From the IMG/VR virus record IMGVR_UViG_2563366883_000008: 38,527 nt of DNA. The stretch is one strand, 5' to 3'. A program made the position numbers and the translations under genes. A model generated the notes under the pieces. It was not told the origin of the DNA. It searched no databases and saw only the letters and a list, made by a program, of their open reading frames with translations. The DNA is from a virus. Lineage: Duplodnaviria > Heunggongvirae > Uroviricota > Caudoviricetes. Below are positions 1,818 through 31,377 of the stretch, piece after piece (the stretch's first letter is position 1; each line of letters begins with the position of its first letter).

Positions 1818-1822
1818 TATTG

Positions 1823-5051: not shown

Positions 5052-5105
5052 GTATTTACCTTCCTTAAAAAGAGGTGGAAAGGCCTTTTAAAGCAGATAT
5101 ACGGC

Positions 5106-5266: not shown

Positions 5267-5500
5267 CAGTCAACCGCAGATGACCGGTATGTACAGAACG
5301 TTCAGCTTGGAGCACAGAGCTATCATTCACCCGGAGGCAATGAAATGTCATGGAATTACAGTGCGCCTTCCGGTTGTATGCTTTCCGGTATTAACGTGCA
5401 GGAAACAGGAAAAAACTCTGCCGATAACATTGGCGGGGTTTATTTCCGTCCTGTGCAGATATATATCAGTAATGCATGGCGTACAGTTTCATCTGTCTGA
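5261..5500 (+). CDS. Alternative tail-fibre C-terminal segment (S'v-like), not joined to the fibre gene in this orientation
   Basis: MTQSTADDRYVQNVQLGAQ parallels MTESTANQRYVTGVRLGAQ of the fibre C-terminus; in frame with the inverted repeat so inversion would fuse it to the constant part. Confidence 0.6.
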   Translation: MTQSTADDRYVQNVQLGAQSYHSPGGNEMSWNYSAPSGCMLSGINVQETGKNSADNIGGVYFRPVQIYISNAWRTVSSV

Positions 5501-5505
5501 TGAAA

Positions 5506-5532
5506 GAAAAAGGGTGCGATAAGCACCCTTTA
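5506..5532. terminator. Bidirectional hairpin between convergent S'v and tail-fibre assembly genes
   Basis: aaagggtgc / gcacccttt stem with loop gataa, flanked by A-run and T-run. Confidence 0.5.
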
Positions 5533-5534
5533 AG

Positions 5535-6077
5535 TTATTCAGGCTGTTCGGGCCATTTAATGGCATCAAATTCAGCTTCAGTTTTAATGGCGGATGGTTC
5601 CATTTTTTTCACCTGACTGATGTATGCCATCCATCGGGTAAGTGCGGCTCTGTCTTCATCACTGATGGTGCCCAGCTGTAATTCTGTTCTCCAGTCATTA
5701 ATTTTTTCATATGCCTGATTAAGATATAACTGGCGCATTGCTTCCAGTTTTCTTGCGTAGTTAACCGGAATACGGGAGATCACGCCATTATCAAACTTCC
5801 AGTTACCCGAAATATCAGCACCTTCAGGGAGTTCGTCGACTTCAACCACAGAGAACCCCGCAGGATACAGCGCCGAAGCGTCCTGTGATATTGAGCAGAT
5901 AATGCCGCTGTCAGGTGTTATACAAAGTTTATATTTTTTGGTGAATAATGGCAGGGACTCGTAGAAATCCTTACCATCTTCACTCTGAAAATACTGTACA
6001 TCATTACCATAGAGGGTGTTTTCCGGGTAATATCGTTTAACATTAATCAGTTGCATAAACATCACCATGTGAATCAA
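5535..6077 (-). CDS. Tail-fibre assembly protein (Mu U-like), 180 aa
   Basis: Immediately downstream of the tail-fibre gene inside the invertible segment; size and position as for Mu U/Tfa. Positional call. Confidence 0.55.
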   Translation of the reverse strand: MIHMVMFMQLINVKRYYPENTLYGNDVQYFQSEDGKDFYESLPLFTKKYKLCITPDSGIICSISQDASALYPAGFSVVEVDELPEGADISGNWKFDNGVISRIPVNYARKLEAMRQLYLNQAYEKINDWRTELQLGTISDEDRAALTRWMAYISQVKKMEPSAIKTEAEFDAIKWPEQPE

Positions 6078-6176
6078 TGATAAAAACAGGAATAATACTA
6101 TCGCTATATACGGACAGGGATTGTCTGAGATAACACATATATCAGGCGCTGCCTGCCGTACGCCATGAGCCGTTAA

Positions 6177-7073
6177 TTAAATACTTGCAGCGGATACCCA
6201 ATTCCCATTAATACAATATTGTATCTGTCTGTAATAAACACGGTCATCACCACTACGCATTTCCCAGTCTCCATCAGTCTTAAAACCGGTAATCACATTT
6301 CCTGATGACAGGGAGTAATTATATTCCAGTCCGCCGCTTAATGCCTGCGCTCCCAGTCTTACCCCTGTAACATAACGCTGATTGGCTGTTGATTCCGTCA
6401 TCCCTGAAGTAATGCTGATATCCTGCGTCCCGTCGAAAGGAACACCATTAATATTTCTTGGGGTGGCGAGTTTATTCGCTGCCGCAGCGGTGCCGTCCGA
6501 TGGCAGGGCATTCGCCGCCTTATTTACCGTTTCCCGTAAACCGACGTTATCGATAAAGGTTCCTTTGTCCGCGATATCCGCGCCATTCTGATCCTTGCGC
6601 AGATAACGGTTATCACCTTCGCTCTTGCTGTAAACATCCAGATTCTGGCGGGCCGTCGGTTTATCCGGTACATCGCCAAAATTCATGGATTTCTCCAGTG
6701 CTCCCACATCATTAGCAGCCAGGCTGTCTTTTCCTGATAATCCTCCAAGCCCAAGATGACGGCGGGCAGCAGCCTGTGCTTCTGCACCTGCATCCGCAAT
6801 CTCCTTAAGGTTGTTTTTCCGGCTGTATGCGTTTGCTGCAATGATTGCCTTAATGGCTATCACCAGCTGGTTCAGTTTTGCCTTATCCGGCTGAACCTGT
6901 CCTTCTGTCAGAATGGCAAGCAGCTCTGCCTGCACGATGTTCAGCCAGTCCTGACCTATATGGCTGATCCCTTTGCGTCCGTCACCTTCAGTAAACCATT
7001 TAACCTGCGTGCCCTGTGAGGGGGCCAGTGGTGGCATATCGGTCACACCTGAATTGTTGTCGACAAAATACAT
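6177..7073 (-). CDS. Tail-fibre protein (Mu S-like): constant part plus variable C-terminus inside the invertible segment
   Basis: Follows baseplate genes; its 3' part crosses the 148-bp inverted repeat (6396-6543) and the gix-like site. Confidence 0.8.
   Translation of the reverse strand: MYFVDNNSGVTDMPPLAPSQGTQVKWFTEGDGRKGISHIGQDWLNIVQAELLAILTEGQVQPDKAKLNQLVIAIKAIIAANAYSRKNNLKEIADAGAEAQAAARRHLGLGGLSGKDSLAANDVGALEKSMNFGDVPDKPTARQNLDVYSKSEGDNRYLRKDQNGADIADKGTFIDNVGLRETVNKAANALPSDGTAAAANKLATPRNINGVPFDGTQDISITSGMTESTANQRYVTGVRLGAQALSGGLEYNYSLSSGNVITGFKTDGDWEMRSGDDRVYYRQIQYCINGNWVSAASI
6396..6543. repeat. Inverted repeat, right copy (148 bp)
   Basis: Reverse complement identical to 5119-5266; lies inside the tail-fibre coding sequence. 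Confidence 0.9.
6531..6556. other. gix-like recombination site (right)
   Basis: TTCCCGTAAACC-GA-CGTTATCGATAA; inner half-site identical to the left site, outer half-site diverged. Confidence 0.6.
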
Positions 7074-7630
7074 TACTCCGTCTCCTCATGACTGTTTTCG
7101 TACAGATATAAAAACGTCTGCCAGGCTGGCTTATAACGGTTTAAAATGCACTCCAGCGCACTTGCATCATAAATTCGCAGTGGCGTAAGAATATCGTCCA
7201 GTACATTCATGTGACGGTATCCAACCGCTGTCTTCACTGTCACAATACTGATCCATTGTGATTCCGGTGATGGCTGGATATCTATTTCATAACCAAACTC
7301 TGCCGCAAACCGGATATAAAATTCACGGTTAAGAGAGGGTTTCATCCGGTATTTATTCCCGGCATAACGCTGACGCTCCTGAATGGTTGCGCCGGTCATA
7401 TCACATTCCGGTAACCCCAGATAACGCTCCCAGTCTTCCAGCAGCAGACGGGATGAATCAGGAAAACGTTCTGCCAGCATCTGGTTGCCGGTCCAGGAAA
7501 CACGCTCCGTGGAATGACTGAGGCCCAGGCACAAAGCCGCAAGAACGGATGACGGCCGCTTATCCCATACCAGCCCGTCAGGCAGCAACTGCAACAGGGC
7601 GCGCTGATGCGGGGTCAGGGTTACAGCCAT
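7073..7630 (-). CDS. Baseplate/tail protein (Mu gp48-like), 185 aa
   Basis: Position between baseplate J-like gene and tail fibre; 1-nt ATGA overlap with the fibre gene. Confidence 0.65.
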   Translation of the reverse strand: MAVTLTPHQRALLQLLPDGLVWDKRPSSVLAALCLGLSHSTERVSWTGNQMLAERFPDSSRLLLEDWERYLGLPECDMTGATIQERQRYAGNKYRMKPSLNREFYIRFAAEFGYEIDIQPSPESQWISIVTVKTAVGYRHMNVLDDILTPLRIYDASALECILNRYKPAWQTFLYLYENSHEETE

Positions 7631-8706
7631 GTGATTTCCCCCACGGTCAGCAACTCTGTATCTCCGGCCATCACGGACTTCAGCGGGCTGCGAACTTCAA
7701 AATCCTCCAGTCCTTTCACCCCTGCAACAGCCCGCCAGAATGATGAAGGCAATACAAGTCCACCCGGCCGCGATTCGTTATAAAGCAGGTCCGTTAATGC
7801 CTGTTTTACGGCAGCCTGATTTTCCGGCGTTTTGGGTACAATCCTTATCTCAAACACCACCGGCTTATTGGTCAGCTTAAACACGCTGATTGTCGGCCCA
7901 AGTGGCTGACCAACGGGCTGGCCCGTCGCCGGATCATCATGACTGCGGATATAATCCGCCACCCGCTTCACATCACCTTCCCCGGGGAAAATGTCAGGGT
8001 TATTATCCTGAACAAAAGTCACACCAACACTACCAGCCTCAGGCCATTCAGGCTTACACCATGCCCGCGTCACGCCAGGTACTTCCCGTGCCCAGCGTTC
8101 AAAATCATACTGTGTTCCCCCTGATGGCGGGTTCTGTACCCGGAATACCAGCCTGGACAGCAACTCCGGCACCGTTTCCACATCCGCACCACCGGTGAGT
8201 CCCGTGCCGGTGACCGTGGCTGTCTGGTTGATGCCCGCCTGTGGTGTGATAAAGGACAGGCGGGTTCCGGTCGGGGTATTTCCGGCGCGCCCCGCACTTT
8301 CCGCCTCCACATTAACATTCAGTGTTCCGGCTTTTCCGGTCGCAGAGCCAGTGATGCGGTACACAACACCATCGCTTCGCTGAAGGAGTACGCCTTCCGT
8401 GATCCCTGCATCCGTGGTCAGCATCAGTTGTACCGGTCCGTCAGCGCGGGAAGCCGGTTTACGGATGACACCCCAGAATGCGCAGTGTTTCAGGAGTTCG
8501 GCTTCATCAGCTTCTGTCGGAATTATCTGCCGGGAGATCCAGGCCAGATGTTCATGCTCCTGTGCTGACAGCCCCGCCTGTGCATACGCAATGGCATTCA
8601 GGGTGGTTTCATTCACGCCCGGCTGCGAACCGGGCAGGCGCTGGCTGATATCCTGTTGTGTCTGTGTGATCAGTTGCGCCAGTGGTAAGGGCTGATAAGG
8701 CATCAT
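7621..8706 (-). CDS. Baseplate J-like protein (Mu gp47-like), 361 aa
   Basis: Size and position in the baseplate module; translationally coupled to neighbours. Confidence 0.75.
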   Translation of the reverse strand: MMPYQPLPLAQLITQTQQDISQRLPGSQPGVNETTLNAIAYAQAGLSAQEHEHLAWISRQIIPTEADEAELLKHCAFWGVIRKPASRADGPVQLMLTTDAGITEGVLLQRSDGVVYRITGSATGKAGTLNVNVEAESAGRAGNTPTGTRLSFITPQAGINQTATVTGTGLTGGADVETVPELLSRLVFRVQNPPSGGTQYDFERWAREVPGVTRAWCKPEWPEAGSVGVTFVQDNNPDIFPGEGDVKRVADYIRSHDDPATGQPVGQPLGPTISVFKLTNKPVVFEIRIVPKTPENQAAVKQALTDLLYNESRPGGLVLPSSFWRAVAGVKGLEDFEVRSPLKSVMAGDTELLTVGEITWL

Positions 8707-9140
8707 TCCCCCTTCATATCAGCATAAAAAATCATCGGATGTCTGCTTCCGTCCGGCAGGGTGATTTTCACGGAAAGCGAAAGGCGATCATGCCCCACAC
8801 GCATGGCATGACATACCACGGATGTGGCAGCACCGCTTTTATGCAGCCACGCCAGCGCTTCATCAGCATAGGCCTGTGCACGGCTGACCACGGAGGACAG
8901 CGTCTTTTCACGGCTTAACAGCCAGAGACGGGAGCCAACGGGGCGCTCCCGGAAACTGTCTCCCCACCATCCCCGCCTGTCACGAGTGCCGTCAGGGATT
9001 TCATCAGAATCCAGCGCCCGCCTGTCCGTAAACAGCGAAATCAGAACGGCCGTCAGCAGACTGTCATCCGTCAGCAGGTCGGCACCGTTCAGTTGCAGCG
9101 AGCCGCACCCCTGATCCCATACAATTGCAATATCAGCCAT
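8703..9140 (-). CDS. Baseplate wedge protein, GPW/gp25-like (Mu gp46-like); start at internal ATG 9138-9140
   Basis: ATG overlaps the stop of the upstream gene (ATGGCTGA); the longer ORF in the track would overlap it by 150 bp. Confidence 0.7.
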   Translation of the reverse strand: MADIAIVWDQGCGSLQLNGADLLTDDSLLTAVLISLFTDRRALDSDEIPDGTRDRRGWWGDSFRERPVGSRLWLLSREKTLSSVVSRAQAYADEALAWLHKSGAATSVVCHAMRVGHDRLSLSVKITLPDGSRHPMIFYADMKGE

Positions 9141-9747
9141 TCTCCGGTGCTCCTGTCTTACTGCCTTTGCCGTTATCCTGATGCACATGACCGGAATACC
9201 GTATCCCTGCAATAACGGCATCCGACATTGTGAACAGTCCCTGAGATTTCCCCGTACCATCAAGCGCGAAATTCCCCTTAACATGCAGGTTTTTATCCAC
9301 CGTCACATTGCCCGTAAAGGTGGCTTCCGGCGTATCCACCCGCATCCCCTCGTCGGCGTAAATCTCCAGCATTTTGCATGTCACAATAATGCGACCATCC
9401 TTTGTTAACCGTATCCGGTGCCCCTCATGGTGATACACCCCCGTATCTCCGGCTTTGAGTCCGGTCGGACGGCTGCGCCGGTCTTCCACCACAAGCACCA
9501 CAGTCTGATCCCGCTGTCCGCCCAGACAGGCAAAAAAGGTTTCTGCACCCGGCAGGGGAACGCTGATCTGCCCGTACTGCTGGGGGCGCTCCACATCATC
9601 AAAGGTTTCGCCGTCCATGCCGGTGAGCTGCACATTCTGCATTTTCAGTTCGTCATGTGTGCCGGTCAGAACGCCCCGGCCAAACAGCAGGCGAATACCG
9701 CGCGTTACCGGGGCAATCAGGCGGCTGAACACTTCATCATTCATCAA
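9133..9747 (-). CDS. Baseplate assembly protein V-like spike (Mu gp45-like), 204 aa
   Basis: Position and size in the baseplate module. Confidence 0.7.
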   Translation of the reverse strand: MMNDEVFSRLIAPVTRGIRLLFGRGVLTGTHDELKMQNVQLTGMDGETFDDVERPQQYGQISVPLPGAETFFACLGGQRDQTVVLVVEDRRSRPTGLKAGDTGVYHHEGHRIRLTKDGRIIVTCKMLEIYADEGMRVDTPEATFTGNVTVDKNLHVKGNFALDGTGKSQGLFTMSDAVIAGIRYSGHVHQDNGKGSKTGAPENG

Positions 9748-10861
9748 AGCTGATCCCCTGTTTTTTCATCTGCTGGCGAATAAAGGCATCAACATCGTCA
9801 CCGGAACCACCCCGGCCCTTACTGTCCGGCTCTGCCGGAACGATAAAGCCGTCACGCGGTGCCAGTACCAGCCGGGTGACTTCCCCGTTCTGTTCATCCA
9901 GTAAAAACTCCACCTGACAGACCAGCAGTTCAGTCTGTTCTATACCGAAACGCTGGGCCGAAACACCGGTCAGCAGATTGACATCCCATAACCGGCCATC
10001 ATCCCGGAACCAGCCACGCACGGTGGCAGAAAACCGTTCTGAACGGGCAATCGCACGGCGCATTTCACGCAGGGCACGCTGCCGTGCACCGGTGGTGTCT
10101 GTCTGTTGATCGGCGAGGATGATTTTCGGCCGGTAGCGGCCGATCTGCTCATCACTGATGACGCCCACAGGTGCTGCCAGCCGGGCGGCGGACTCGCTGT
10201 CTCCCCGTTTGCCACCACCGCGCCCGTGTCCCCGGACACGGTATTCACTGTATCGTCCTCGCCAGTCCGTGTTGTAATCGGCATCAAGCAGGTTATCTCC
10301 CAGCACCAGTCTGTCCGTCTGCTGGCTTCCTGCCTGGGTGAACACCAGATCGCCGTCAGCATTACTGGTCACCAGCACCCCGCGATGCCGAGCAGAACGG
10401 GTCAGCGCATCCGCCACGGTTTCTGAGTTTTCCAGCGTAAAAGAGCTGAAAGGGCGTGCAGCCGTGTCGTCGTTAACCTGCCAGCGCACAGCTATCCCGA
10501 AGGGCGCACATAAATCTGCGGCAATCTGTGCCAGCGTCCGGTTGCGCCACTGACTGCCGGGGTGGATGGCGGCACAGTCCACCAGATCGCCGGTTTTATC
10601 CCGGCCGCTGATGCTGATCTGATGACGGGTTGCACTGATCCGCTGACTGACCTGATCCAGCCAGCCACTGATGACCGTCTGCCCGTTAATTCTGAGCGTC
10701 AGGGACTGACCGGTCCGCAGGGCTGAGGGGATGCGCTCACCGGGCAGCATCAGCCCCAGTTCAAACGACCCGGCCAGATGCTCCAGCGAGCGACGGACGC
10801 TGACCGTCAGCCAGCCGGAAAAAATACTGCCGCCGATATACAGTTCAATCCTGCTGCTCAC
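9737..10861 (-). CDS. Tail protein P (Mu gp44-like, late control D-like), 374 aa
   Basis: Position after the DNA circularisation gene; size. Confidence 0.7.
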   Translation of the reverse strand: MSSRIELYIGGSIFSGWLTVSVRRSLEHLAGSFELGLMLPGERIPSALRTGQSLTLRINGQTVISGWLDQVSQRISATRHQISISGRDKTGDLVDCAAIHPGSQWRNRTLAQIAADLCAPFGIAVRWQVNDDTAARPFSSFTLENSETVADALTRSARHRGVLVTSNADGDLVFTQAGSQQTDRLVLGDNLLDADYNTDWRGRYSEYRVRGHGRGGGKRGDSESAARLAAPVGVISDEQIGRYRPKIILADQQTDTTGARQRALREMRRAIARSERFSATVRGWFRDDGRLWDVNLLTGVSAQRFGIEQTELLVCQVEFLLDEQNGEVTRLVLAPRDGFIVPAEPDSKGRGGSGDDVDAFIRQQMKKQGISFDE

Positions 10862-12203
10862 TGATCACCTCCACGCTGCGGCCACCCGGAACAAAAACCG
10901 GATCGGGGATGTTGTTTCTGCGGACAAAATACTGCCAGCGGCGGCTGTTGCCGGTGGCACGGTACAGCGTGACCAGTGCCGGTTCGGTGGTTCGCACCAT
11001 GACCTGAAAAGCACCGGGAAGATGAACACTCCGCGTGGTTAAATCTTCTGTCAGCGCAAGCCCTGCATCACGTAATGCAAGGGCGGTGCCGGTATGGCCC
11101 TGTGCGGACAGATCCAGTACCTGTTGTTCCATGGCATCACTCAAATCCCGGTTGATACGCTGCACATCGGCAGAACTTTCCAGCCAGGCCAGTCCACCCG
11201 CACGGTCAGTATCCTGAACGTGCCTTGTATTCTGCCGGATGACCTGATCCAGCAGTTTCCCGACCGTCTGCGCCTGCGACACCAGGGTTGCACTCTGCAT
11301 GACGCTCCGCAGCAGACGGATATTTTTCTGTGCCGCAGGCGTCAGACCAATCAGGCGCTGCGGATCATCCTGTTCGCTGAGGGTGTAACGCAGGGAAGAA
11401 AGTGTGCGGTACAGCTGCGGCATTGCCTGCTCTGTCATGCTGTCACGGTTTGTGGTCAGGCTGCCGGACGGCCTTCCTGCCTTCCCGGTCAGTGACAGGG
11501 AAGGATTGCCGGGCAGCCCGGTCAGCACGGCAAATATTCCGGCCAGCGATTCAGCCATGCGACGGGGCGCATTAATCAGGGCGGCGGCATTGCCTTTAAT
11601 GGCGGTAAAACTGGCCGTAAAGGCACTGACATCCTGCACAATCCCCATCCCTGAAACGGCATTCTCCAGCGCATCAATCTTATCGCTGATGGTGTCGGTC
11701 ATGGCCTGAACATCATGCAGACCGTCTGAAATCACCGTCCAGCCGTCTGAAAGCGTGTTAAACAGCTGATTCATTGCTGAACCGCTTTTCTGCTCCAGCG
11801 CAGCTGCCGTATCTTCTGCCACCGAAGGGGCGGTATCGTCACTGGCGGGGATCACGTTGATCGTGAACTCAACCGTTCCCTGCTCGCTGGCGTTATAACG
11901 GCTTTCAAAGCTGTTTATCAGCACGTTTAACGTGCCGTAATCCGGGTGCATCAGTTCACCGGCACCGGGTGCACGCAGCGCATCACGCAGGCGGCTTCGC
12001 TGTGTCTGAAGATCGTCTCCGGTCACCAGAACCGTGAATGTGAACTCCGGGAGTTTTGGCCCCAGATCATCCGCACCGCCGCTTTCACGCAGTGGGTATT
12101 CACGGCGCACAATGTTACGTCCGCCCCGTTCCCGCTGCTCCTGATAAACCAGGAACGGTACGCCACGAAAGGAGCCACGCCCCGGCGTGTCAGTAGAGGC
12201 CAT
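10845..12203 (-). CDS. DNA circularisation protein N (Mu gp43-like), 452 aa
   Basis: Position directly after the tape-measure gene; size. Confidence 0.7.
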   Translation of the reverse strand: MASTDTPGRGSFRGVPFLVYQEQRERGGRNIVRREYPLRESGGADDLGPKLPEFTFTVLVTGDDLQTQRSRLRDALRAPGAGELMHPDYGTLNVLINSFESRYNASEQGTVEFTINVIPASDDTAPSVAEDTAAALEQKSGSAMNQLFNTLSDGWTVISDGLHDVQAMTDTISDKIDALENAVSGMGIVQDVSAFTASFTAIKGNAAALINAPRRMAESLAGIFAVLTGLPGNPSLSLTGKAGRPSGSLTTNRDSMTEQAMPQLYRTLSSLRYTLSEQDDPQRLIGLTPAAQKNIRLLRSVMQSATLVSQAQTVGKLLDQVIRQNTRHVQDTDRAGGLAWLESSADVQRINRDLSDAMEQQVLDLSAQGHTGTALALRDAGLALTEDLTTRSVHLPGAFQVMVRTTEPALVTLYRATGNSRRWQYFVRRNNIPDPVFVPGGRSVEVISEQQD

Positions 12204-14247
12204 AGTTCCCTCCGTTCCAGACGTTCACATCCAGGCCATGCTGTGCGGTATCATCCACATCAATACTGCGCGCCCGCCAGCCTTCAGGGGCCACAAGCTC
12301 TACCCGTGCGGCGGTTTTCGCGGTGGCCTGTCCGCCGTTTTCGTCACTGCTGCCACGCAGTTTCTGCCAGGCCTGCGTCAGCCAGCCCCCCAGATAATCA
12401 CCGAGATAGCTGCCCACTGTGGAACCAATGGCAACCCCGACCGGACCGGCAGCCGCCCCCAGCGCGCCACCGGCGATACTTCCGGCAAGGGAACCCACGG
12501 CACCGGCTTTATCGGCTGCACTGGCGCTGCTGTCCAGCAGTACAGGAGCCGCCATGGCACCGGCCCACAGGGCACCCCCACCCAGCCGACCGGCACCACG
12601 GAACAGCCCGGCAAAACGCCCCAGCCCCATGCGGTTTCCGGCCGCCGAAAGCAGACCACCGGCACGGCTCATCATACGACCGAAGAAGCCCTGTTTACCG
12701 GCGCTCTCCGCCAGCTGCTCACCGGCGGTCACGACGGTCGTGACACCCCGCCCGCGTCCGGGGCCGCGTTTTTTACGGTCGCGCACGGTTTTGCCGTCAC
12801 CGCTGACCACCACATCCCCGCTGCCTGAGGCCAGGCCACCCGCAGGCCAGTTGGTGACCAGCACGGGCTGAACGGCAGCAGGATTTACCCCGGTAAGGAA
12901 ATTCAGGAAGCGGCCAGCGCGTCCGGGCTGCGTTCCCGGCACAGTGGTCTGCGGTTTGCGGAAGGGCGACGTCAGCACGGAGGTCATCGCCATACCATAG
13001 CGTAAGGGGGTTGCGCCGAGACGTAATGCTCCCGCCCCCGCAAACCTGAGCACCTTCAGCGCGCGGGAGGCGAGATACATATACATCAGGTATTTTGCGG
13101 CGGTCTGCGCCCCCTGACCAATACGATCCAGTGCATCGCCATAACCGGCGTCGCGCAGTGCCTGAAGCGTTTCCCTGACTTTCTGAATGGCACGGTAAAA
13201 GCCGGTTGCAGCGTCTCTGGCATACTCGAATCCCTGATTCAGGGCCGAGGCCGTCTGTGTGGCCAGCTTATCCTGTAAGCCGCTTTTCTGTGCCGCATCA
13301 GCATAATCCAGGAAGCCTTTCAGGCTCTTTTTCAGACTGTCAAACGGTCCCTTTGCCATCACTTCACGGGCAAACTGATCCCAGACGTCGCCCATCATGG
13401 ACGTCATTCCCGTCCAGGAATTCATGGCGTTTTTCTGGGCACCTTTTGCCTGTTCGGCCATCACCTGAAATAACAGGCGAATGCTGTCCGGCCCCAGTTT
13501 TCCTTTTTCGCCTTTCTCACGGATGAGCTTCTGGTTTACGCCCAGCTTATCGGCCAGTAACTGGTAAACGTTAATCCCGTATCCGGTCAGAATATTGGCG
13601 TCCGCTGCCTGGATACTCTGGCGGGCAAACATCTGTTTGAGTTGCAGGGACGCACCCTGTGCATCTGACAGTGACCAGCCGTGATAGCCGCCCTGATCCT
13701 GAAGCATGGTAATAAAGCGACGGGCTTCCCTGTCACTCATGCCAAACCCGCGACTGGAGGCGTATTCCTGCATAACCCCCGCCAGCCCCCAGGTGGTGTC
13801 TTTGGCGTTCTGTACTGCCCAGGCTTTCACTGCTTCCGTTTTTGCCTTATCGCCATGATTAATGGCGTTGAGACGCAGAATATAGTTCTCCATCTCTGCG
13901 GCCGGGCGGATAAAGGCTTTATTAAAACCGTAGACCGCAGCCCCTCCCGCCAGCATCCCGTAAAGGTTGCTTATCCGCCCGATGGTGCCGGTAATGCTGC
14001 CCTGCAGGCGGTCAAAATCTGACGTTACCGTGCGGATGCTGCCACGAACACCGGCAAGCGTTCGCTGCATACGGGAGCCGACAAGTTCTGTTTCCTGACC
14101 GGCCCGGCGGGCTGCATTTCCAAGACCACCCAGGCCTGTCCTGCCGGAACGGGAGAACGCCCCCAGCTCCTGTGACCACTGGCGGGATTTGGCGGAAATA
14201 TTGCCGAGTAAATCGACAATCAGGGAGGCTTTCAGGTTTTTTGCCAT
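12190..14247 (-). CDS. Tail tape-measure protein, 685 aa
   Basis: Long Gly/Ala-rich protein with hydrophobic glycine-zipper segments near the C-terminus, downstream of the tube and chaperone genes. Confidence 0.85.
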   Translation of the reverse strand: MAKNLKASLIVDLLGNISAKSRQWSQELGAFSRSGRTGLGGLGNAARRAGQETELVGSRMQRTLAGVRGSIRTVTSDFDRLQGSITGTIGRISNLYGMLAGGAAVYGFNKAFIRPAAEMENYILRLNAINHGDKAKTEAVKAWAVQNAKDTTWGLAGVMQEYASSRGFGMSDREARRFITMLQDQGGYHGWSLSDAQGASLQLKQMFARQSIQAADANILTGYGINVYQLLADKLGVNQKLIREKGEKGKLGPDSIRLLFQVMAEQAKGAQKNAMNSWTGMTSMMGDVWDQFAREVMAKGPFDSLKKSLKGFLDYADAAQKSGLQDKLATQTASALNQGFEYARDAATGFYRAIQKVRETLQALRDAGYGDALDRIGQGAQTAAKYLMYMYLASRALKVLRFAGAGALRLGATPLRYGMAMTSVLTSPFRKPQTTVPGTQPGRAGRFLNFLTGVNPAAVQPVLVTNWPAGGLASGSGDVVVSGDGKTVRDRKKRGPGRGRGVTTVVTAGEQLAESAGKQGFFGRMMSRAGGLLSAAGNRMGLGRFAGLFRGAGRLGGGALWAGAMAAPVLLDSSASAADKAGAVGSLAGSIAGGALGAAAGPVGVAIGSTVGSYLGDYLGGWLTQAWQKLRGSSDENGGQATAKTAARVELVAPEGWRARSIDVDDTAQHGLDVNVWNGGNYGLY

Positions 14248-20510: not shown

Positions 20511-20686
20511 TCCGGCAGCATAAGCCGGGAATTTTCAGGGCGGGTTTTGCGGGATTTCAGGAAGTGCTTCCAGGGGAAAAATACAAAGGCGCTTCACGCA
20601 GATTTTAAAGCCCGTTAAATACAGGTTAGAAAATCACGACACGCGCCTGAAGGGGGTAAGGTAATGCATTTGCATACCTTAAACAA

Positions 20687-21198: not shown

Positions 21199-21278
21199 GC
21201 CGGTGTACTCTTAACTGGTAAAGCGGCATAAACCCTCAGGGGTCATATGTTTATGCGGGTTCGACCCCCGTCACCGGC
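21199..21278. other. Structured GC-rich element in the F-G intergenic gap (nested stems, tRNA-like acceptor/T-arm geometry)
   Basis: gccggtg (21199-21205) pairs with caccggc (21272-21278); internal gcataaac/gtttatgc stem; gcggg-TTCGACC-cccgt hairpin; a U-rich tract follows on the minus strand before the G RBS. Confidence 0.3.
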
Positions 21279-22604
21279 TTACAATTTACCTTCCAGTAGT
21301 TCCAGCTTTCCGCCCTCTATTGCTTTTTCAATATCAAATTTATTTACCCGGTAAGCATTAATTACCACATCCAGCTTATCCGGCTGGCGCTTCACACCAT
21401 AAGGCGCATTGACGGCAATCTTTGCCGTTCCGTCACGGGTTTCAGTGATGTAAAGCAGGTTCTGGTGGACATTATCCCACAGCACGGCATCGGGGGCGGC
21501 CAGCATTGCCGGTAATCGCCCGAAATCCTCCGGCGTCAGGGCAATGCCGTCATTCTGATGTTTCACGCTGTCCGCATGGAGCACATTTTTACCGCTCATC
21601 GCCAGCAGGCGGGCCGGTGGCGTTCCCGTCCGGCTTTCCACCGCCTGCGCAATACTTTCGGTCATAAAGCCCAGCGTGCGGATATCGTTACCGCCTCGCC
21701 GGGTTTTCATGATGTTTTTTGCCCAGATGCGGAACGCCAGCTGCCGCTCCGGGCTGTTGTTCATCTCCTGAACCACCATTTCCCGTAACGCCGGGCTTTT
21801 CACCTCGATCAGTTTACGGATCAGCGCCTGGTCTGTGCCGAACGCCGCCGAACCGGGGTTATATGACCAGCCCACATCCGGTGTCATGGTTCTGGTGCCA
21901 TCTGAATATGTGGTCACCGGCATTTCTCTGACTTCCCCGGTCTGCTTATCCACGCCAGCCTCAACATTGCGGGTGGAGAGATGATCCTGACCGGATGAAA
22001 CAGAGAGTCCCATTGCATCCAGACGGGCCTGAGACAATGGCCGGACACGGCAGCGACAGTTCCAGCCATTGGGCGGGTAGTGTGTATTCCAGAACGGATC
22101 GTCATAGCGGAATACCAGCCCGTTAAGGGCGGAATGCGCCGGGCGGGTGCGGCTGTCCATCACCGCCACATACTGCCAGAACGGATGCGTGTCCGTGTTG
22201 TTCATCATCTGCGTGTAACGCCCGGCATTGTAAGCCACGCGGGTGTTCACGTTGTAAATCAGCGCCAGACGACGGGGACTGCCCAGTTGCACTTCTTCCG
22301 CGTTCCCTGCGCTGTCCACCACAATCTGCTTTCCCCACCATCCCAGCTTTTGCAGGCGGGGTGTCAGCGTGCGGATAAATGCTTTCTGTGAAATCCCCTC
22401 ATCAACAGCACGCTGCACTTCCGCCTGTAGTGTGGTCAGTACGTCCAGGCGTGCCACTTTTGCCGCCGTGAATGAACGGGCATGAACATCCGCGTCTGTT
22501 TCGAACCAGTTCCAGCTGATATGCACCCCTTTGGCGCGGAAGTATGCCACCGCCTCTTTTGAGGGAAGGGTGGCGGCATAACCTAAATCAATCCCCTGAG
22601 CCAT
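21279..22604 (-). CDS. Head morphogenesis protein (Mu F-like), 441 aa
   Basis: Size and position after the portal gene. Confidence 0.8.
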   Translation of the reverse strand: MAQGIDLGYAATLPSKEAVAYFRAKGVHISWNWFETDADVHARSFTAAKVARLDVLTTLQAEVQRAVDEGISQKAFIRTLTPRLQKLGWWGKQIVVDSAGNAEEVQLGSPRRLALIYNVNTRVAYNAGRYTQMMNNTDTHPFWQYVAVMDSRTRPAHSALNGLVFRYDDPFWNTHYPPNGWNCRCRVRPLSQARLDAMGLSVSSGQDHLSTRNVEAGVDKQTGEVREMPVTTYSDGTRTMTPDVGWSYNPGSAAFGTDQALIRKLIEVKSPALREMVVQEMNNSPERQLAFRIWAKNIMKTRRGGNDIRTLGFMTESIAQAVESRTGTPPARLLAMSGKNVLHADSVKHQNDGIALTPEDFGRLPAMLAAPDAVLWDNVHQNLLYITETRDGTAKIAVNAPYGVKRQPDKLDVVINAYRVNKFDIEKAIEGGKLELLEGKL

Positions 22605-24186: not shown

Positions 24187-25841
24187 CCCCGATCAAATTC
24201 ATGATATGCCTCATCGTCATCACGATAACCGCCCTCCATTGCCCGCGACCGCTCCGGCAGCGCCTGACAGGCTGATTCATCCAGGATGAAACCCTCCATG
24301 TATGACGCCCGGTTTGCCATACAGAGTGCCACGGCAAAATCACCATGGCGGCGGGCGTTCGCAGCCGTTGCGTTCTGGTCCTTCGTGCGCCCCTTGTCGA
24401 TTTGCGGGATACCATTCACCACCTTCACATGGCGCAAATCATCAAGCGTGGTCTGATGGCGGGCGACGAGGATATTCTGATCTTCAAACTCGGCTTTCAG
24501 TTTTGGCATCCACTCGCCGTACCACTTCGGCGACAACATCACGCAGTCGATGATGTCCGGGCCAAAGGCCAGCAGCGCGGCTTCTGCCAGATAGCCGCCG
24601 TTACCGGTGGCGTCAAACGCTGCACCAACCAGGGCCGGAACGCGGGTCAGGATGTACATCATCACCTGCTCCTGCTGGGCATACGGCAAGTTGCGCAGCT
24701 CCACGCGAAACACCTCACGTTTTGCCAGGGATTCGGTGATTTCCAGCAGCACAAAGCAGGAGAGGTCACCGGTGCGGGCAAAGTCTTCCCCGAAGCTGAA
24801 GCGGGAACGGGGATTTAACGCCTCTAAAAGCGGTTTTAAATGTTCTTCACACCAGGTTAAAACTTCCGATTCACGCAGCCATGCGGCACGGCTGATGAAG
24901 TCGTCCGGGGCTTCAAACGTCAGAATCGGGATGTCGCGGATCATCGCCATTTCAATAAGTGCGTGAGGAATATAGGCACCGCCGGATTTTTTCGGGATAC
25001 AGCCGTATTCCTCGTCGGCATCCTCACGGGTCGGGGCGTTTTTGTAGAGATCATCACGCCACTTCTGCTCGCTTTCCGGTGACCATTCGCGGCCGGTGAC
25101 ATAACAGATACGACGGTACAGCCCGTCCGCAATGGCATCATCCAGGGTTATGCGGTGGACGCTGTAATCCTTGCGTCCCTCGCGGGCTTCCTGAATGTAC
25201 TGATTAAACAGATTATCGACGCCGTTATGCGTGGAGATAATACGCACGCGCGCGCCCCACATGGTAAGCGCCATTGCCGCCTTGAGAAGCTCATCCAGTG
25301 ACTCGTGGAACGCGGCTTCATCAATCACCACATCTCCCTGAAGGCCGCGCAGGTTTGACGGACGGGAAGACAGTGCCTGAATTTTGAATCCACTGTTCGG
25401 AAAGCGGATCATGTAGGTCAGAATTTCTTCTTTTTTATCCCGATCCCAGAAGGTCTGCTCATACACATCAGCATCTGCCAGCTGGTTAAAGGCACGGGAG
25501 AACAGGGCGCAGGCAGAAATATATTCCAGCGCCATCTCCTGCTTTGACCCCACATAAAACACATTGCGGCCACCGCGCCGCTTCGGTTTTGCAGCGGTAA
25601 TGACGTTACGCCCGGCTTCCGCCCAGGTAAGCCCGGTACGGCGGGATTTTTCCGCGATGCAGACCTCGCTTTCATCCTCAAACCAGCGGGCCTGATAATC
25701 CAGAAATACCGGCATATCACCGGGCAAATCAAGGCTGTCCGGCACATCCACGCCCAGCAGGGCTTTTTCACCGGCCAGATCAATTTTGCGGGTAGAGACG
25801 GTATTCGTCAGTAAGGGGGAGAGTTCTTCGGCGTTATTCAT
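24177..25841 (-). CDS. Terminase large subunit (Mu gp28/E-like), 554 aa
   Basis: VVIDEAAF Walker-B-like ATPase motif; size; followed by portal. Confidence 0.85.
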   Translation of the reverse strand: MNNAEELSPLLTNTVSTRKIDLAGEKALLGVDVPDSLDLPGDMPVFLDYQARWFEDESEVCIAEKSRRTGLTWAEAGRNVITAAKPKRRGGRNVFYVGSKQEMALEYISACALFSRAFNQLADADVYEQTFWDRDKKEEILTYMIRFPNSGFKIQALSSRPSNLRGLQGDVVIDEAAFHESLDELLKAAMALTMWGARVRIISTHNGVDNLFNQYIQEAREGRKDYSVHRITLDDAIADGLYRRICYVTGREWSPESEQKWRDDLYKNAPTREDADEEYGCIPKKSGGAYIPHALIEMAMIRDIPILTFEAPDDFISRAAWLRESEVLTWCEEHLKPLLEALNPRSRFSFGEDFARTGDLSCFVLLEITESLAKREVFRVELRNLPYAQQEQVMMYILTRVPALVGAAFDATGNGGYLAEAALLAFGPDIIDCVMLSPKWYGEWMPKLKAEFEDQNILVARHQTTLDDLRHVKVVNGIPQIDKGRTKDQNATAANARRHGDFAVALCMANRASYMEGFILDESACQALPERSRAMEGGYRDDDEAYHEFDRGCW

Positions 25842-27609: not shown

Positions 27610-27940
27610 TCGTGGCCGCCTCACTGATTTGTGAAATGAGTTGCAGGGTGCGTTGCTGGTTTGCCAGCACCAGACGGGCTTCGTCCCGTTCGCGCACAAG
27701 CACATGATTATTGTCCTCAAGGCGCTGCGTCTTCTGGTGCATTCCCCATACCACGGCAGCCAGCACGCTCATCACCCCCAGCGCCGCCATACAGCCTCCG
27801 GCAATCAGGGCCGGTAAGGGATTATTCACCGCAGCCACAGCACACCCCGCAGCAGCACAACGGCACACAGCAGCGCAATCATGAGCGGTCGCCAGAAGCG
27901 GTTCAGACTTTCGGCAAATCGTAGCGACATAACCATTCAT
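27440..27940 (-). CDS. Putative i-spanin (start at ATG 27938-27940; the ORF-track start is a TTG)
   Basis: Hydrophobic N-terminal segment then coiled-coil-like region; overlaps the endolysin 3' end. Confidence 0.5.
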   Translation of the reverse strand: MNGYVATICRKSEPLLATAHDCAAVCRCAAAGCAVAAVNNPLPALIAGGCMAALGVMSVLAAVVWGMHQKTQRLEDNNHVLVRERDEARLVLANQQRTLQLISQISEAATNEKQQNIQHSEGQQSVVRRSLAAVPAASAPVPDDVADRVRRAVCEIRACEAGADPR

Positions 27941-28403
27941 CCGCCGAACGGCGGGCCTCAAGACCGGGGAGTTTCACCCCCTTCGAATAAATCCAGCGGA
28001 TGTACTGCTTACAGGACGCGGGCATCTGCCCGGCATTGATCAGGCGCAGAAGCGTGGAGTTGCGGAAGTTCGTTTCACCAGCCCAGAAGATCCACGAAGC
28101 CAGCGCCACCGTCTGACCACGGGTAAGCGGCACCTGAACACGCCGATCAATGGCCGCAAAGGCCCATTTCATGTCCTTTTCCAGTAGTTCCAGGCATTCT
28201 TCATCCGTCAGGGTCATACCCGGTTTCACATCCGGGCCGGTATGGCCGTAACAGATGGTTGGTGTACCGGTGGGATCGATATACGTGGAGTTTTCTTTCC
28301 CTTCCCAGTAACCGGTGTAATGCGTGGTAATGGTGAACGTCCCGGCACCGGCCAGAACAAGGGCAATCAGCTTTTTACGCAGTGGTGCGGGGAGTTTTGG
28401 CAT
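27903..28403 (-). CDS. Endolysin, T4-lysozyme-like (GH24), probably SAR-type, 166 aa
   Basis: N-terminal weakly hydrophobic Gly/Ala-rich segment (LIALVLAGAGTFTITT); YWEGKENSTYIDPTGTPTICYGHT E-D-T catalytic block. Confidence 0.85.
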   Translation of the reverse strand: MPKLPAPLRKKLIALVLAGAGTFTITTHYTGYWEGKENSTYIDPTGTPTICYGHTGPDVKPGMTLTDEECLELLEKDMKWAFAAIDRRVQVPLTRGQTVALASWIFWAGETNFRNSTLLRLINAGQMPASCKQYIRWIYSKGVKLPGLEARRSADEWLCRYDLPKV

Positions 28404-28474
28404 TGTTACGCTGTCTCATGATGTTCTCTGAGTCAGCGTAACGGTGAAGGAAAGGCGGCAGGCTTTGCGGAATA

Positions 28475-28897
28475 TCAGAAAAGTGGCGGTTGCGTTCTTG
28501 CCAGATGCAGACGGCGCTGTTCGCGTATGACGGTATAAATCTGGGTTTCTGACATCCTGTAATGGCGGCGCAGGGTTTCAATTTTTTCGCCCTGGCTCCA
28601 GCGGGAAAAAATCTCATTATTGCGCAGTTCGGTGAAAAGGGATTCACCGACCGGGAGATAATAACCACGCCCGCCCATGTACCCGGCCTGTGCGGCCGCA
28701 ACTTTACGGGCAAGCATTCCTGCCTGAGCAGGTTCAATCCCCTGACGGTGCAGTTCAGCACTGATCACATCAACCAGGTCCCGCAGCGTGCCGGGCCAGT
28801 TCTTTTTCAGCTCATCATCAGGAATGTCATCCAGACGGTCAATCAGCGCGTGCAGCTGTTCGCTGTCACCAAACATGCTCATCTGTGTTTCAGCCAT
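28475..28897 (-). CDS. Mor/C-family transcriptional activator of middle/late genes, 140 aa
   Basis: C-terminal HTH region and QPPLF terminus resemble Mu Mor as I recall it; directly upstream of the lysis genes. Cannot say whether it is Mor or C. Confidence 0.75.
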   Translation of the reverse strand: MAETQMSMFGDSEQLHALIDRLDDIPDDELKKNWPGTLRDLVDVISAELHRQGIEPAQAGMLARKVAAAQAGYMGGRGYYLPVGESLFTELRNNEIFSRWSQGEKIETLRRHYRMSETQIYTVIREQRRLHLARTQPPLF

Positions 28898-28939
28898 ACC
28901 CGCCTCCGGTCATCATTACACAGGGCAAGTTTAAAATAA

Positions 28940-28963
28940 AAATCCCGCGCTGTGGCGGGATTT
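28940..28963. terminator. Terminator hairpin, copy 1
   Basis: 9-bp stem aaatcccgc/gcgggattt, loop gctgtg; A-run before and T-run after, strong in minus-strand sense. Confidence 0.6.
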
Positions 28964-29237
28964 AGAGGCGCTGTAAATCATAACCCGAAATGAGCTGTGT
29001 ATTTATTGATCATTTTCCGGTGTAACTATATGATAAAGATCGTTTTTATTTTTAAAAATACAAACCCTGAAGGAGTTTTTCTTATCAAAAAGCTTGTGCA
29101 TATTGCGGGTTATTGTTGTTTCATCAACATGAAAACCAATTATCCCAACTCTTAAAGCACACCAGGCTTGCTCCAGTGCAAAAACAAATAATTTCAGTCT
29201 GCCTGACAGCGTTCCACCGGAATAAAGGAAGATATCC

Positions 29238-29660
29238 ATGAAACAACCTCCATCTTTGCTTTTATCGTGCCCACCAGAACTGGCCCATGAACTCAATGAT
29301 CTGGCGAAAGAGTATAAACTTACAAATCATAATATAGAAGCAGCAACACTTAGTGCTGCCGGAAGCGATATTGTATTGATCGTTCTGGCCGCAGCTTCAT
29401 GCGATGGGTTCTGGCAGGCATTAGCCAGTATGTTTCAGACGTGGTTACATCGTAAACCAACAAAACAAACACCCCCGGAAAAGAAAGTTATTCGTAGCGT
29501 CATTGTTCGTAGCTGGGAACACTATCAGGAGACAACTAAACAAACTGAATTTTATAACTTTGATGCTGATGAGCTGGCTAAATTGATAGCGTTATATGAA
29601 AAACCAGATGAAACAATTGGTTGCATAATCCCGTCAGAAACGGAAATTCAGGAAAAATAA
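29238..29660 (+). CDS. Hypothetical protein (140 aa), opposite-strand moron gene
   Basis: AGGAAG RBS; hydrophobic segment DIVLIVLAAASCDGFWQALASMF; AT-rich; stop immediately followed by hairpin copy 2. Confidence 0.6.
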   Translation: MKQPPSLLLSCPPELAHELNDLAKEYKLTNHNIEAATLSAAGSDIVLIVLAAASCDGFWQALASMFQTWLHRKPTKQTPPEKKVIRSVIVRSWEHYQETTKQTEFYNFDADELAKLIALYEKPDETIGCIIPSETEIQEK

Positions 29661-29683
29661 AATCCCGCACTGTGGCGGGATTT
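29660..29683. terminator. Bidirectional terminator hairpin, copy 2
   Basis: aaatcccgc-actgtg-gcgggattt, one loop mismatch versus copy 1; sits between the convergent stops of gemA (29687) and the moron gene (29660). Confidence 0.65.
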
Positions 29684-29686: not shown

Positions 29687-30196
29687 TTAACAGGGGAATG
29701 ATTTTTCATACAGCCTGCAAACGCGCTCATAACTCATCACTGCACGCTCCGACATATCCAGGGCTGCCAGCATTTTGCGGCGGTGCCAGCGTTTGAGACG
29801 CTCCAGCACATCAGAGGCCAGCTCGGGGTGTTGCTCCAGCCACTGCCAGTTAGCCACACCTTCGCCGCCGTTCTGCGCGGCCGTCTGCGATTGCACCCAG
29901 CGGTTAAGGGCCGTTTCCGCACCATCAGAAATAAAGCCCTGCCGGTGCATCACTTTCCAGATGGCGCGAATTTTGGCGGTCACCGTACCCGGCTTTAAGG
30001 CCCGGTTAACCGGTTTCTGACGCACTTTAAAACCGCGTTTTTTGAAAACATCCAGTACGCGGGATAACTCATCCGGTGACATATCCCGGCAACTGGCTTT
30101 ACCGGTGGCTGCCAGCAGTGCGGATGTATAGGTTTCATCATCCAGAGCAAGCTCGCGTTTTGCCACATGAATGGCAGATATCAGTTTTCCTCTCAT
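29687..30196 (-). CDS. gemA: GemA-like regulatory protein (Mu gp16 family), 169 aa
   Basis: ISAIHVAKRELALDDETYTSALLAATGKAS... resembles the Mu gp16/GemA family; last gene of the early operon. Confidence 0.75.
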   Translation of the reverse strand: MRGKLISAIHVAKRELALDDETYTSALLAATGKASCRDMSPDELSRVLDVFKKRGFKVRQKPVNRALKPGTVTAKIRAIWKVMHRQGFISDGAETALNRWVQSQTAAQNGGEGVANWQWLEQHPELASDVLERLKRWHRRKMLAALDMSERAVMSYERVCRLYEKSFPC

Positions 30197-30504: not shown

Positions 30505-30829
30505 TGTGTATCTCCCGTAATTCCGGTAAAGCCGAAATATGGCACCAGTGCGTCACCTGTCCATCCTCATCTTCAAGGCAGGCTCCGGTTTCTTCATCAA
30601 CAAAAAAACCTTCATACCCGATATGGCCGATGCGCAGCTCCTGTCGGTGACCGTACTGAACAATCAGTACAACAGCCTCCATATCAGGCGGGAAAGCATC
30701 ATTCAGTGAATGCCAGGGATAACCGCGCAAATCCCCGAAATAAACCCCGGTCAGGGTTCCGCCACAGACCGGCATCCCGGCGGCACATACCAGAGGTTCG
30801 TCTGATTCAACAAATAAGGTCGTTATCAT
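30497..30829 (-). CDS. Hypothetical protein, 110 aa
   Basis: ORF in tight overlapping array; no recognised motif. Confidence 0.5.
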   Translation of the reverse strand: MITTLFVESDEPLVCAAGMPVCGGTLTGVYFGDLRGYPWHSLNDAFPPDMEAVVLIVQYGHRQELRIGHIGYEGFFVDEETGACLEDEDGQVTHWCHISALPELREIHNG

Positions 30830-31377
30830 GGCGTTAACTCCCGTAATACAGCGTCCCCGGCAGTCCGGCGATGGTGATAAATAAAATTCACCGTACTCTC
30901 GGATAATTCAAATTTCTCGCCTATTTCCCGGAAGGTAAGACGTCGTGGTGATTCAGCATCCCGTAATTCACGAATAAGATGAACATCATCGTCAGGTATA
31001 CGGGTGAAGGGCAGCAATTCTCCGTATTTTTTCATGCTTACGCCAATATATCGCGCCCGATTGTGGACAGAATCCCGGTCTCGCCCCAGATATTCTCCTA
31101 TTTGCTTACCGGTCATCGTTCTGGCATTTTTTCGGATAAATTTATCTTCATCATGTTTAAATCTTGGACGTTTGCATTTGAGCAACTCCGGGTAAGTACC
31201 GCGTAATAAAACAATCCGGTTATGTACACCCCAGAAACTTCTTTTTACCCTGACAGCAATATTCTTAACCGGGGTGGATGGATAAAGCGCAATCAGCAGC
31301 GCATCTTCTTCAGGTGTCCACGCACGGACATGAGCAGGTGCCTGACCTTTTCGCCCCATGGGTTGTAAAATCATCAT
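30826..31377 (-). CDS. Hypothetical protein with two HTH-like segments (SANT/Myb-like WTPEEDALL motif), 183 aa
   Basis: WTPEEDALLIALYP and two later HTH-like stretches (TGKQIGEYLGRDRDSV; FREIGEKFELSESTV). Confidence 0.5.
   Translation of the reverse strand: MMILQPMGRKGQAPAHVRAWTPEEDALLIALYPSTPVKNIAVRVKRSFWGVHNRIVLLRGTYPELLKCKRPRFKHDEDKFIRKNARTMTGKQIGEYLGRDRDSVHNRARYIGVSMKKYGELLPFTRIPDDDVHLIRELRDAESPRRLTFREIGEKFELSESTVNFIYHHRRTAGDAVLRELTP

Follow-up and report, generated by a model that had tools for sequence, protein, structure and literature searches.

The window studied here, the whole 38,527-nt stretch of IMG/VR virus record IMGVR_UViG_2563366883_000008, belongs to a Mu-like prophage in which an inverted repeat lies in the 71-bp spacer between a Mor/C-family activator gene and the endolysin gene (lys). 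We observe that the -10 region of this spacer is complementary to its own ribosome-binding site (RBS) region, and that the same is true lineage by lineage among relatives despite their differing sequences. In our model, which we regard as probable though well short of certain, the repeat constitutes an RNA gate on the endolysin RBS of the type known from gene e of phage T4, made here from the -10 element of an activator-dependent sigma-70 promoter. The mechanism as such is already known from T4, and what is new is most likely its occurrence in the Mu-like phage family; no description of such a gate in Mu-like phages was found in the literature searched.

According to this model, upstream transcripts, either the activator's own mRNA or early read-through, would enter lys carrying both arms of the repeat, since there is no terminator in the 71-bp spacer. 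The read-through RNA would then fold and hide the endolysin RBS. Because the 5' arm, which holds the -10 hexamer, precedes the predicted start, the late mRNA would lack the hairpin, which only read-through RNA could form; transcripts from the late promoter, devoid of the 5' arm, would be translated, and endolysin would be produced only after the activator has turned the late promoter on. An RNA structure gating endolysin translation was one of two roles that the original prediction had offered for the repeat, and it is the best-supported reading, with the amendment that the structure would exist in read-through RNA only, as its 5' arm is the -10 hexamer. The elements concerned are as follows.

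27903-28403, minus strand: endolysin gene, first gene of the lysis/late operon (Pfam Phage_lysozyme, 6e-37)
28404-28474, minus strand: activator-endolysin intergenic stretch, 71 bp
28405-28418, minus strand: hairpin 3' arm UGAGACAGCGUAAC, spanning the Shine-Dalgarno (SD)-like UGAGA (28418-28414) together with the spacer and ending 1 nt short of the AUG
A28429 or G28428, minus strand: predicted late transcription start, on the loop side of the hairpin, placed by homology to Mu Plys
28429-28442, minus strand: hairpin 5' arm GUUACGCUGACUCA, upstream of the predicted late start and holding the -10
28435-28440, minus strand: putative -10 hexamer TACGCT of the lys late promoter, within the hairpin 5' arm, counterpart of Mu TAGACT
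28457-28478, minus strand: putative box for the activator in the lys late promoter, CTGATATT-CCGCAAAGCCTGCC, spanning roughly -50 to -29 and overlapping the activator stop codon
28475-28897, minus strand: Mor/C-family late transcriptional activator, C-like, 140 aa (Pfam Mor PF08765, PHROG 532)

The repeat was first noticed as GTTACGCTG (28405-28413) and CAGCGTAAC (28434-28442), perfect reverse complements with 20 nt between them and separated from the A of the endolysin ATG (28403) by a single base, 28404. These 9-bp arms are indeed present, and they turn out to be part of a longer repeat with 14-nt arms (28405-28418 and 28429-28442), complementary at 13 of 14 positions across a 10-nt gap. Bare 9-bp perfect repeats are expected about 4-5 times per window by arithmetic and are hence unremarkable alone; a repeat with 14-nt arms, at least 13 matches and a gap of 3-30 occurs once in the 38.5-kb window, against 0.18 expected from first-order Markov simulations. 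On the sense strand the RNA folds at -21.6 kcal/mol (z = -3.1), a value reached by none of 200 shuffles, into a 9-bp outer helix, an A.A mismatch and an inner helix of 4-6 bp. In model RNAs, the mean probability of being unpaired in the SD region is 0.11 for the read-through RNA versus 0.47 for the late transcript, and the accessibility changes in the same direction in the relatives L036, L037, L048 and L108 and in Pasteurella phage Pmp9. A terminator scan of 28404-28474 found no terminator-like site, the stem being followed by AAUGCC rather than by a U-run as in an intrinsic terminator, and Rfam 15 recognized no RNA family in 27800-29400, where the sole match was a subthreshold, chance hit to snoRNA sR28 inside the activator open reading frame (ORF). 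We also note a 14-codon upstream ORF (28375-28419, minus strand; AUG at 28419-28417; MRQRNNAKTPRTTA) that starts in the hairpin loop with GAGAA before its AUG and runs across the lys start in a different frame; distant relatives lack it.

Judged by its sequence elements, the 71-bp spacer is a compact, presumably activator-dependent late promoter homologous to Mu Plys. The window contains exactly two copies of a 14-mer, CCGCAAAnCCnGCC, both on the minus strand and each with CTGAnnTn ahead of it and N16-TAyGCT behind it, the unit of 14-mer, N16 and hexamer lying at 28470-28435 before lys and at 20552-20517 before the head protease gene; exact matches to the 14-mer box are expected by chance about 0.005 times (arithmetic). 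The late promoter is thus composed of the CTGAnnTn-CCGCAAAnCCnGCC box and a -10 hexamer without a -35 element. A scan with the sigma-70 consensus returned no promoter in 28404-28474, and the -35 position reads GCCTGC, which is not a -35 hexamer. Mu C protects approximately -30 to -55, with a site centered near -43.5, at promoters that have a -10 and no -35 (PMC2582627).

The Mu Plys sequence CCATAATCCCGCAC-N16-TAGACT-GCCATCAGAGAA aligns with CCGCAAAGCCTGCC-N16-TACGCT-GACTCAGAGAA of the window, and the start regions compare as TACGCTGACTCAGAGAA in the window and TAGACTGCCATCAGAGAA in Mu. A 92-mer Mu Plys fragment was designed to extend 20 nt beyond the mapped start (PMC4461284), which places the Mu +1 at the A/G of CAGAGAA; by homology, the window late start would be A28429 or G28428. 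The second copy corresponds to the following promoter.

20517-20552, minus strand: putative second late promoter, with box CCGCAAAACCCGCC, N16 and TATGCT (20517-20522), before the head protease ATG at 20510, counterpart of Mu PI

The -10 of this protease promoter (20522-20517) lies only 6 nt ahead of the annotated ATG at 20510, which implies a leaderless or near-leaderless mRNA; in the Mu PI fragment the start lies about 7 nt before the ATG (PMC4461284).

The box also precedes lys, 30 nt ahead of the -10, in Citrobacter L035, Salmonella L036-L038, L039, L040, L042-L047, and L108/L109, and box and -10 stand in the same register before lys in at least eight relatives, including IMG/VR contigs. 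The activators of these box-bearing relatives share 67% (Citrobacter), 69% and 59% (Salmonella), and 56%, 53%, and 45% (assembly and metagenome) identity with that of the window, and their -10 hexamers, at the same place, read TACTCT, TATTCT, TACCTT, and TACACT.

Conservation of the repeat was assessed at two distances. Within the Escherichia coli lineage, sampled as 70 fetched loci representing 24 haplotypes and with variable sites counted from an anchor outside the hairpin, 2 of the 38 hairpin positions vary, one at the A.A mismatch (28433) and one in the loop-closing pair (28421), both outside the main helices. For comparison, variation affects 10 of the 14 positions of the promoter spacer next to the hairpin and 28 of 79 third codon positions in the flanking genes. 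Beyond this lineage, a protein-alignment scan of genome contigs contributed only one locus, Citrobacter L035, and a metagenome scan one useful new lineage, L108/L109; an IMG/VR DNA-pattern scan for the box, -10, and lys start gave only chance matches beyond the contigs already in the set. The repeat, whose conservation had been at issue in the original prediction, is accordingly near constant among close relatives, and distant ones hold other complementary pairs.

These pairs differ as follows. In the window, GUUACGCUG pairs with CAGCGUAAC, and in L047, GUUACUCU pairs with GGAGUAAC, which relative to the window is a double change from G-C to U-A at hexamer position 4. L035 and L042-L046 combine GUUACUCU with GGAGUGAC, and L037 combines GUUAUUCU with GGAGUGAC, in each case through a U.G pair, while L039 pairs GCU(A)CUCU plus CGGCA with UGCCGGAGAGC. 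L108 and Pmp9 display a perfect 13-14-bp stem reaching from inside the -10 to the SD, and L109 differs by an A-to-G change that gives U.G. One-sided changes among the relatives amount to three, each of them yielding U.G on the sense strand.

An alignment-free permutation test of duplex energies, in which the -10 region (-18 to -1) was set against the RBS region (-18 to +4) in eight lineages, points in the same direction. The lineages' own assignment of -10 to RBS was equalled by 4 of 40320 permutations (4 of 5040 without the window lineage), and other segment definitions gave 2-29 of 40320. Four control segment pairs, drawn from the promoter spacer, the activator box and ORF segments, were not significant (1417-13168 of 40320).

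As a separate observation, the Salmonella enterica contig L036 contains, at about 3480-3517, CTCATGATGTTCTGAG where the window has CTCAGAGAACATCATGAG (28432-28415). The L036 CTCATGATGTTCTGAG is the reverse complement of the hairpin top less 2 nt, as if recombination between the arms had flipped the loop.

Several points weigh against the proposed gate. Separate selection on the -10 and on the RBS explains part of the conservation within the E. coli lineage. Counting pairs at a fixed register in a MAFFT alignment gives only modest support, with 66% of positions paired and a slide of +1 nearly as good, a weak outcome because the 3' arm shifts by 1 nt between lineages. The AUG is predicted to be unpaired in the read-through RNA (0.74-0.80), so that only a weak SD-like UGAGA and the spacer are buried, and in full-length folds of L035, L040, L042, L047, and Mu the accessibility hardly differs between read-through and late RNA. 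A hairpin or terminator follows the activator gene in most distant relatives and in Mu, which implies less read-through and a partly redundant gate there. The start site is a predicted one, placed by homology, and the read-through and translational repression of the model are assumptions. Finally, the box was not found in the window before P-like or com/mom genes, so that two of the four operons expected from Mu are covered. The notion that terminator and hairpin are mutually exclusive solutions of different lineages was dropped, as relatives with a terminator after the activator gene also show -10/RBS complementarity.

Some of these points would equally suit a complementarity without any function of its own, in which -10, start, and RBS are packed into 38 nt and a pyrimidine-rich -10 happens to match a purine-rich RBS. 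The -10 and RBS are each constrained, CUCU/GGAG pairing is common to most relatives regardless of lineage, and both the small predicted accessibility change in L035, L040, L042, L047, and Mu and the weak fixed-register covariation count are what such a by-product would give. We nevertheless judge it unlikely, given that the lineages' own -10/RBS pairing is far better than pairing across lineages (4 of 40320) with no effect in control segments, and that the pairing reaches past the hexamer and SD to join GUUAC with GU(A/G)AC, extending to 14-nt arms in the window and L108. In addition, no other repeat of such quality exists in the window, and the observed substitutions either leave the paired positions untouched or are compatible with G.U pairing.

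A protein-binding site was the other role first offered for the repeat. The palindrome would then be a DNA operator at which a dimeric protein (a repressor, Ner-like protein, early regulator, or host factor) covers -14 to +24 and blocks the lys promoter until removed. It does overlap the -10 and +1, a classic operator position, is near constant in the E. coli lineage (2 of 38 positions vary), and could be met by at least one uncharacterized helix-turn-helix (HTH) regulator of the early region, encoded at 30826-31377. Arms of 14 nt that are complementary throughout, with centers 24 bp apart, exceed the needs of a dimeric HTH protein, however, and the relatives stay complementary with different sequences, registers, and loop lengths. 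In addition, the three independent one-sided changes are U.G pairs on the sense strand, where a symmetric DNA site or the antisense strand would have A.C mismatches, and the U-run after the stem in L108 and Pmp9 is an RNA signal. The long arms, the pairing of differing sequences, and the G.U-compatible sense-strand changes thus disfavor an operator, which we consider quite unlikely.

The activator-amidase spacers of L108/L109 and of Pmp9 (L119), in which the endolysin is an amidase, consist of a stem followed by 6-7 U directly before the ATG. Since the late transcripts of these phages start inside the 5' arm, the stem should terminate upstream transcripts only, and on its sequence the spacer should represent a promoter embedded in a terminator. 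That the hairpin is in general a 3'-end structure terminating, pausing or stabilizing the activator transcript rather than a translational gate on lys is very unlikely, for although the L108/L109 and Pmp9 stem before its U-run is a canonical intrinsic terminator and a terminator follows the activator gene in Mu and several relatives, the window stem runs into AAUGCC with no U-run, the terminator scan is negative, and in every lineage the 3' arm falls on the RBS, something that a structure serving only the 3' end would not need. A 3'-end role and the translational gate are not mutually exclusive.

The protein on which the predicted late promoter would depend belongs clearly to the Mor/C family, matching Pfam PF08765 with an E value of 1e-30 (106.3 bits, cutoff 24.9; profile positions 2-107 of 107 covered) and PHROG 532 "late transcriptional activator" with 7e-45. 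It is closer to Mu C (42% identity) than to Mu Mor (29%), and among PDB sequences phmmer finds Mu C (7e-29, 103 bits) and Mor (4e-11, 46 bits). The linker GGR...Y.P.G is kept, with G75, G76, Y80, P82, and G84 invariant or nearly so in comparison with Mu C and Mu Mor; in the Mor/C family this linker is a glycine-rich beta-strand between the N-terminal dimerization domain and the C-terminal HTH (PMC2582627). Beta-clamp-binding motifs of MuC and the Mor/C family have been described as N-terminal Qx[D/E][L/M]F and C-terminal QPDLF (PMC12867686); in the sequence of the window protein, residues 5-9, QMSMF (S for D/E), and 136-140, QPPLF (P for D), come near to these motifs and each departs from them at one position. 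As for Mu C, the gene is positioned downstream of a terminator-like hairpin of the early operon and directly before the lys late promoter. From these sequence features, the only Mor/C gene of the prophage is the likely functional counterpart of Mu C.

A single Mor/C-family gene 71 bp upstream of the endolysin gene had been proposed at the outset, and both Pfam and the coordinates bear this out. The suggested search for a second paralogue found none: phmmer of the activator against all six-frame ORFs of the window returns only itself, Pfam detects no second Mor among ten early-region ORFs, and the RefSeq annotation of the matching JNEC-KY203 prophage, from the repressor side to com/mom, has only one Mor-family protein. 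In the phage collection, two Mor/C places are seen only in Mu, D108, SfMu, and close kin, and one Mor/C gene each in BcepMu, phiE255, Vibrio martha 12B12, HS6, MuM16-1, Pmp9, and others. As most Mu-like phages have one Mor/C gene, a single activator is ordinary and the two-step relay of Mu the exception. The cascade had been suspected to be shortened or rewired relative to Mu; this holds insofar as there is one C-like activator with neither Mor nor a middle operon, yet that is a common Mu-like state, and the activator-Plys-lys layout is as in Mu. We also observe an ORF in the early region (30826-31377, minus strand; 183 aa) that matches PHROG 323 "transcriptional regulator" at 2e-57 and, weakly, HTH and sigma-70 region 4 families of Pfam, and it is a candidate for an extra regulator in this Mor-less phage.

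The likeness to Mu extends through the region. The activator and Mu C belong to the same family, are both 140 aa long and keep linker and HTH, and in both phages the activator gene stands directly before a signal-arrest-release (SAR)-type lysozyme gene, followed by spanins, a zinc finger, the DUF2730 releasin family, and gp26/gp27 homologues. Because the order C-Plys-lys is the same as in Mu, an activator gene adjoining the lysis genes is the normal arrangement, only more compact here. Mu Plys and the window promoter are alike in design, each with a -10 but lacking a -35 and with an upstream box that begins near -42; the boxes approximate the pattern CC..AA..CC.GC and the -10/+1 regions the pattern TAnnCTG...TCAGAGAA, and the -10 lies about 30-31 nt from the start codon in both. 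Unlike in Mu, where the box is CCATAAyCCC, the window has CCGCAAAnCC, and its spacer measures 71 bp against 94 bp, with no terminator between activator and promoter; it is shorter because the terminator that follows Mu C is absent. The window prophage also lacks Mor and the middle operon (Mu genes 18-20), and its -10/RBS complementarity, with 14-nt arms, is far stronger than the 6-bp GCCAUC/GAUGGC of Mu.

In T4 genes e, soc, 49, and I-TevI, the initiation region is occluded in early read-through RNA by a structure whose 5' strand holds the late promoter (PMC3014915). The window resembles T4 gene e in that a lysis enzyme gene lies downstream of earlier transcription units and a hairpin is predicted to sequester the initiation region in read-through RNA. 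It departs from T4 in its promoter, a putative sigma-70 -10 dependent on a Mor/C activator as opposed to late promoters of the form TATAAATA that use gp55/gp33/gp45, and in its AUG, which unlike that of T4 gene e is predicted to be free while only the SD and spacer are paired. The gene e mechanism has been shown experimentally, whereas that of the window is predicted.

Upstream of the activator gene lies a set of elements that bear on how it may be controlled.

28940-28963, minus strand: intrinsic-terminator-like hairpin AAATCCCGC-CACAGC-GCGGGATTT with T-run, just before the activator gene, at the end of the early operon
29003-29683: moron, consisting of ORF 29238-29660 (plus strand) and ORF 29003-29239 (minus strand), with a second terminator-hairpin copy at 29653-29683
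29687-30196, minus strand: gemA, last conserved gene of the early operon (Pfam GemA, 1e-29)

The hairpin at the end of the early operon was found by the terminator scan and is kept in E. coli, Salmonella, and Citrobacter relatives. A 31-nt direct repeat (28933-28963 and 29653-29683; 90% identical, 720 bp apart) that comprises the two copies of this hairpin brackets the moron, whose ORFs have no match in Pfam, PHROG, or PADLOC. The moron does separate activator and gemA, as originally described, in a lineage-specific manner: in O157 and O111 relatives it is absent, and gemA is followed by 69 bp with one terminator copy and then by the activator gene. The moron of the window would thus be a lineage-specific insertion. 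Strain M3 carries a different opposite-strand ORF at the same site, and these sequences suggest that morons insert or recombine repeatedly at the terminator.

As at Mu Pm, where the early terminator is located, a GC-rich dyad with a T-run ends the early operon directly before a C-type activator gene; unlike the Mu dyad, which binds Mor encoded upstream of it, that of the window follows gemA in a phage with no Mor. The stretch that follows the hairpin in the window and in the M3 lineage, CCTGTGTAATGATGACC (within 28897-28965, minus strand), resembles CCTGTGATGAATAACC of Mu Pm, and a TGTAAT hexamer lies 32-37 nt after the dyad center. This puts the dyad at -43.5, the Mor-site geometry of Mu Pm, with no Mor encoded. 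The O157 and O111 relatives are without the Pm-like stretch, and other lineages have a TATATT-like hexamer right after the T-run.

The 9-mer AAATCCCGC is itself overrepresented, with 7 occurrences in the window against 0.58 expected, a number reached in none of 100 shuffles. Four copies lie in the two palindromic terminators (28940-28963 and 29660-29683) and one in the protease-promoter box (20549-20557), and the remaining two (14182-14190 and 25641-25649) are in coding sequence with no -10. On this distribution, AAATCCCGC may be an activator half-site. For autoregulation through the palindromic terminator, the geometry is Mor-like in just part of the E. coli lineage and inconsistent elsewhere. 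It is possible that the activator gene is switched on by autoregulation, by leaky termination, or by a weak constitutive promoter combined with a product that is active only on replicating DNA (for the clamp dependence of MuC, see PMC12867686).

In BcepMu, phiE255, Vibrio martha 12B12, Pseudoalteromonas HS6, Shewanella MuM16-1, and Pasteurella Pmp9, as in the window, one Mor/C gene is located after gemA. In MuM16-1 and HS6 the activator overlaps or abuts the preceding early gene without a terminator, like Mu mor, whereas in the family of the window prophage it is set apart by a terminator-like hairpin, like Mu C.

The window corresponds to a Mu-like prophage of E. coli JNEC-KY203, with 100% identity across the 801 bp tested and small indels elsewhere, and of the whole prophage only the c repressor and part of ner are missing from it. 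Among 5426 complete E. coli genomes, 231 carry relatives with 87-94% identity, and O157:H7, O111, and O121 are represented among them. The Mu-like prophage of O157 Sakai is Sp18 (PMC2669165), and we infer that the O157 relatives are Sp18-like. Activator, endolysin, and gemA genes as well as the spacer are all on the minus strand. The endolysin has a hydrophobic, SAR-like N-terminal segment resembling that of Mu gp22, and its gene is followed by those for Rz-like and Rz1-like spanins, a TraR/DksA zinc finger, a DUF2730 protein, and gp26- and gp27-like proteins (Pfam, PHROG); DUF2730 is the family of the Mu releasin gp25 (PMC9239132).

Two other features of the window were recorded. A tRNA-like element at 21199-21279 (plus strand) lies antisense to the late operon, between head-morphogenesis and virion-morphogenesis genes, and matches the Rfam tRNA family at 31.4 bits (gathering threshold, 29); it has a 7-bp acceptor stem, a T-arm, and a 15-nt anticodon loop and is called "tRNA-OTHER" by PGAP, and ARAGORN predicts no tRNA anywhere in the window. 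Repeats containing GATC, aatcgaatcgatcgtttttgtcgatcgattgc, cluster at 893-1000 (minus strand) upstream of com/mom (mom, 1-738) and bring to mind the Dam-methylation sites by which Mu Pmom is controlled. No CCGCAAA box was seen at 893-1000 upstream of com.

A wider proposal, which we put forward as doubtful, is that in transposable phages under Mor/C control, those of enterobacteria and Pasteurellaceae, the first lysis gene generally has a promoter-embedded RBS gate, weak in Mu and maybe doubling as an upstream-only terminator in L108 and Pmp9. Under the same proposal, the lone activator may activate its own gene through the palindromic AAATCCCGC-N6-GCGGGATTT, which is also the early terminator, and thereby replace the Mor-to-C relay by a self-reinforcing step coupled to replication.

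Mu-type phages lyse by means of a SAR endolysin and releasin, with no holin clock (PMC9239132), and the first translation of endolysin is therefore a main determinant of lysis timing. If true, the hairpin gate would explain how the activator gene can lie 71 bp before lys, with no terminator in between, without premature lysis. It would also mean that the solution of T4 gene e arose independently with a sigma-70, activator-dependent promoter, and that -10 sequences can evolve under a requirement for pairing with an RBS downstream. The box, the -10, and the hairpin offer three mutable elements with which to control or report the induction of a prophage that is common in pathogenic E. coli.

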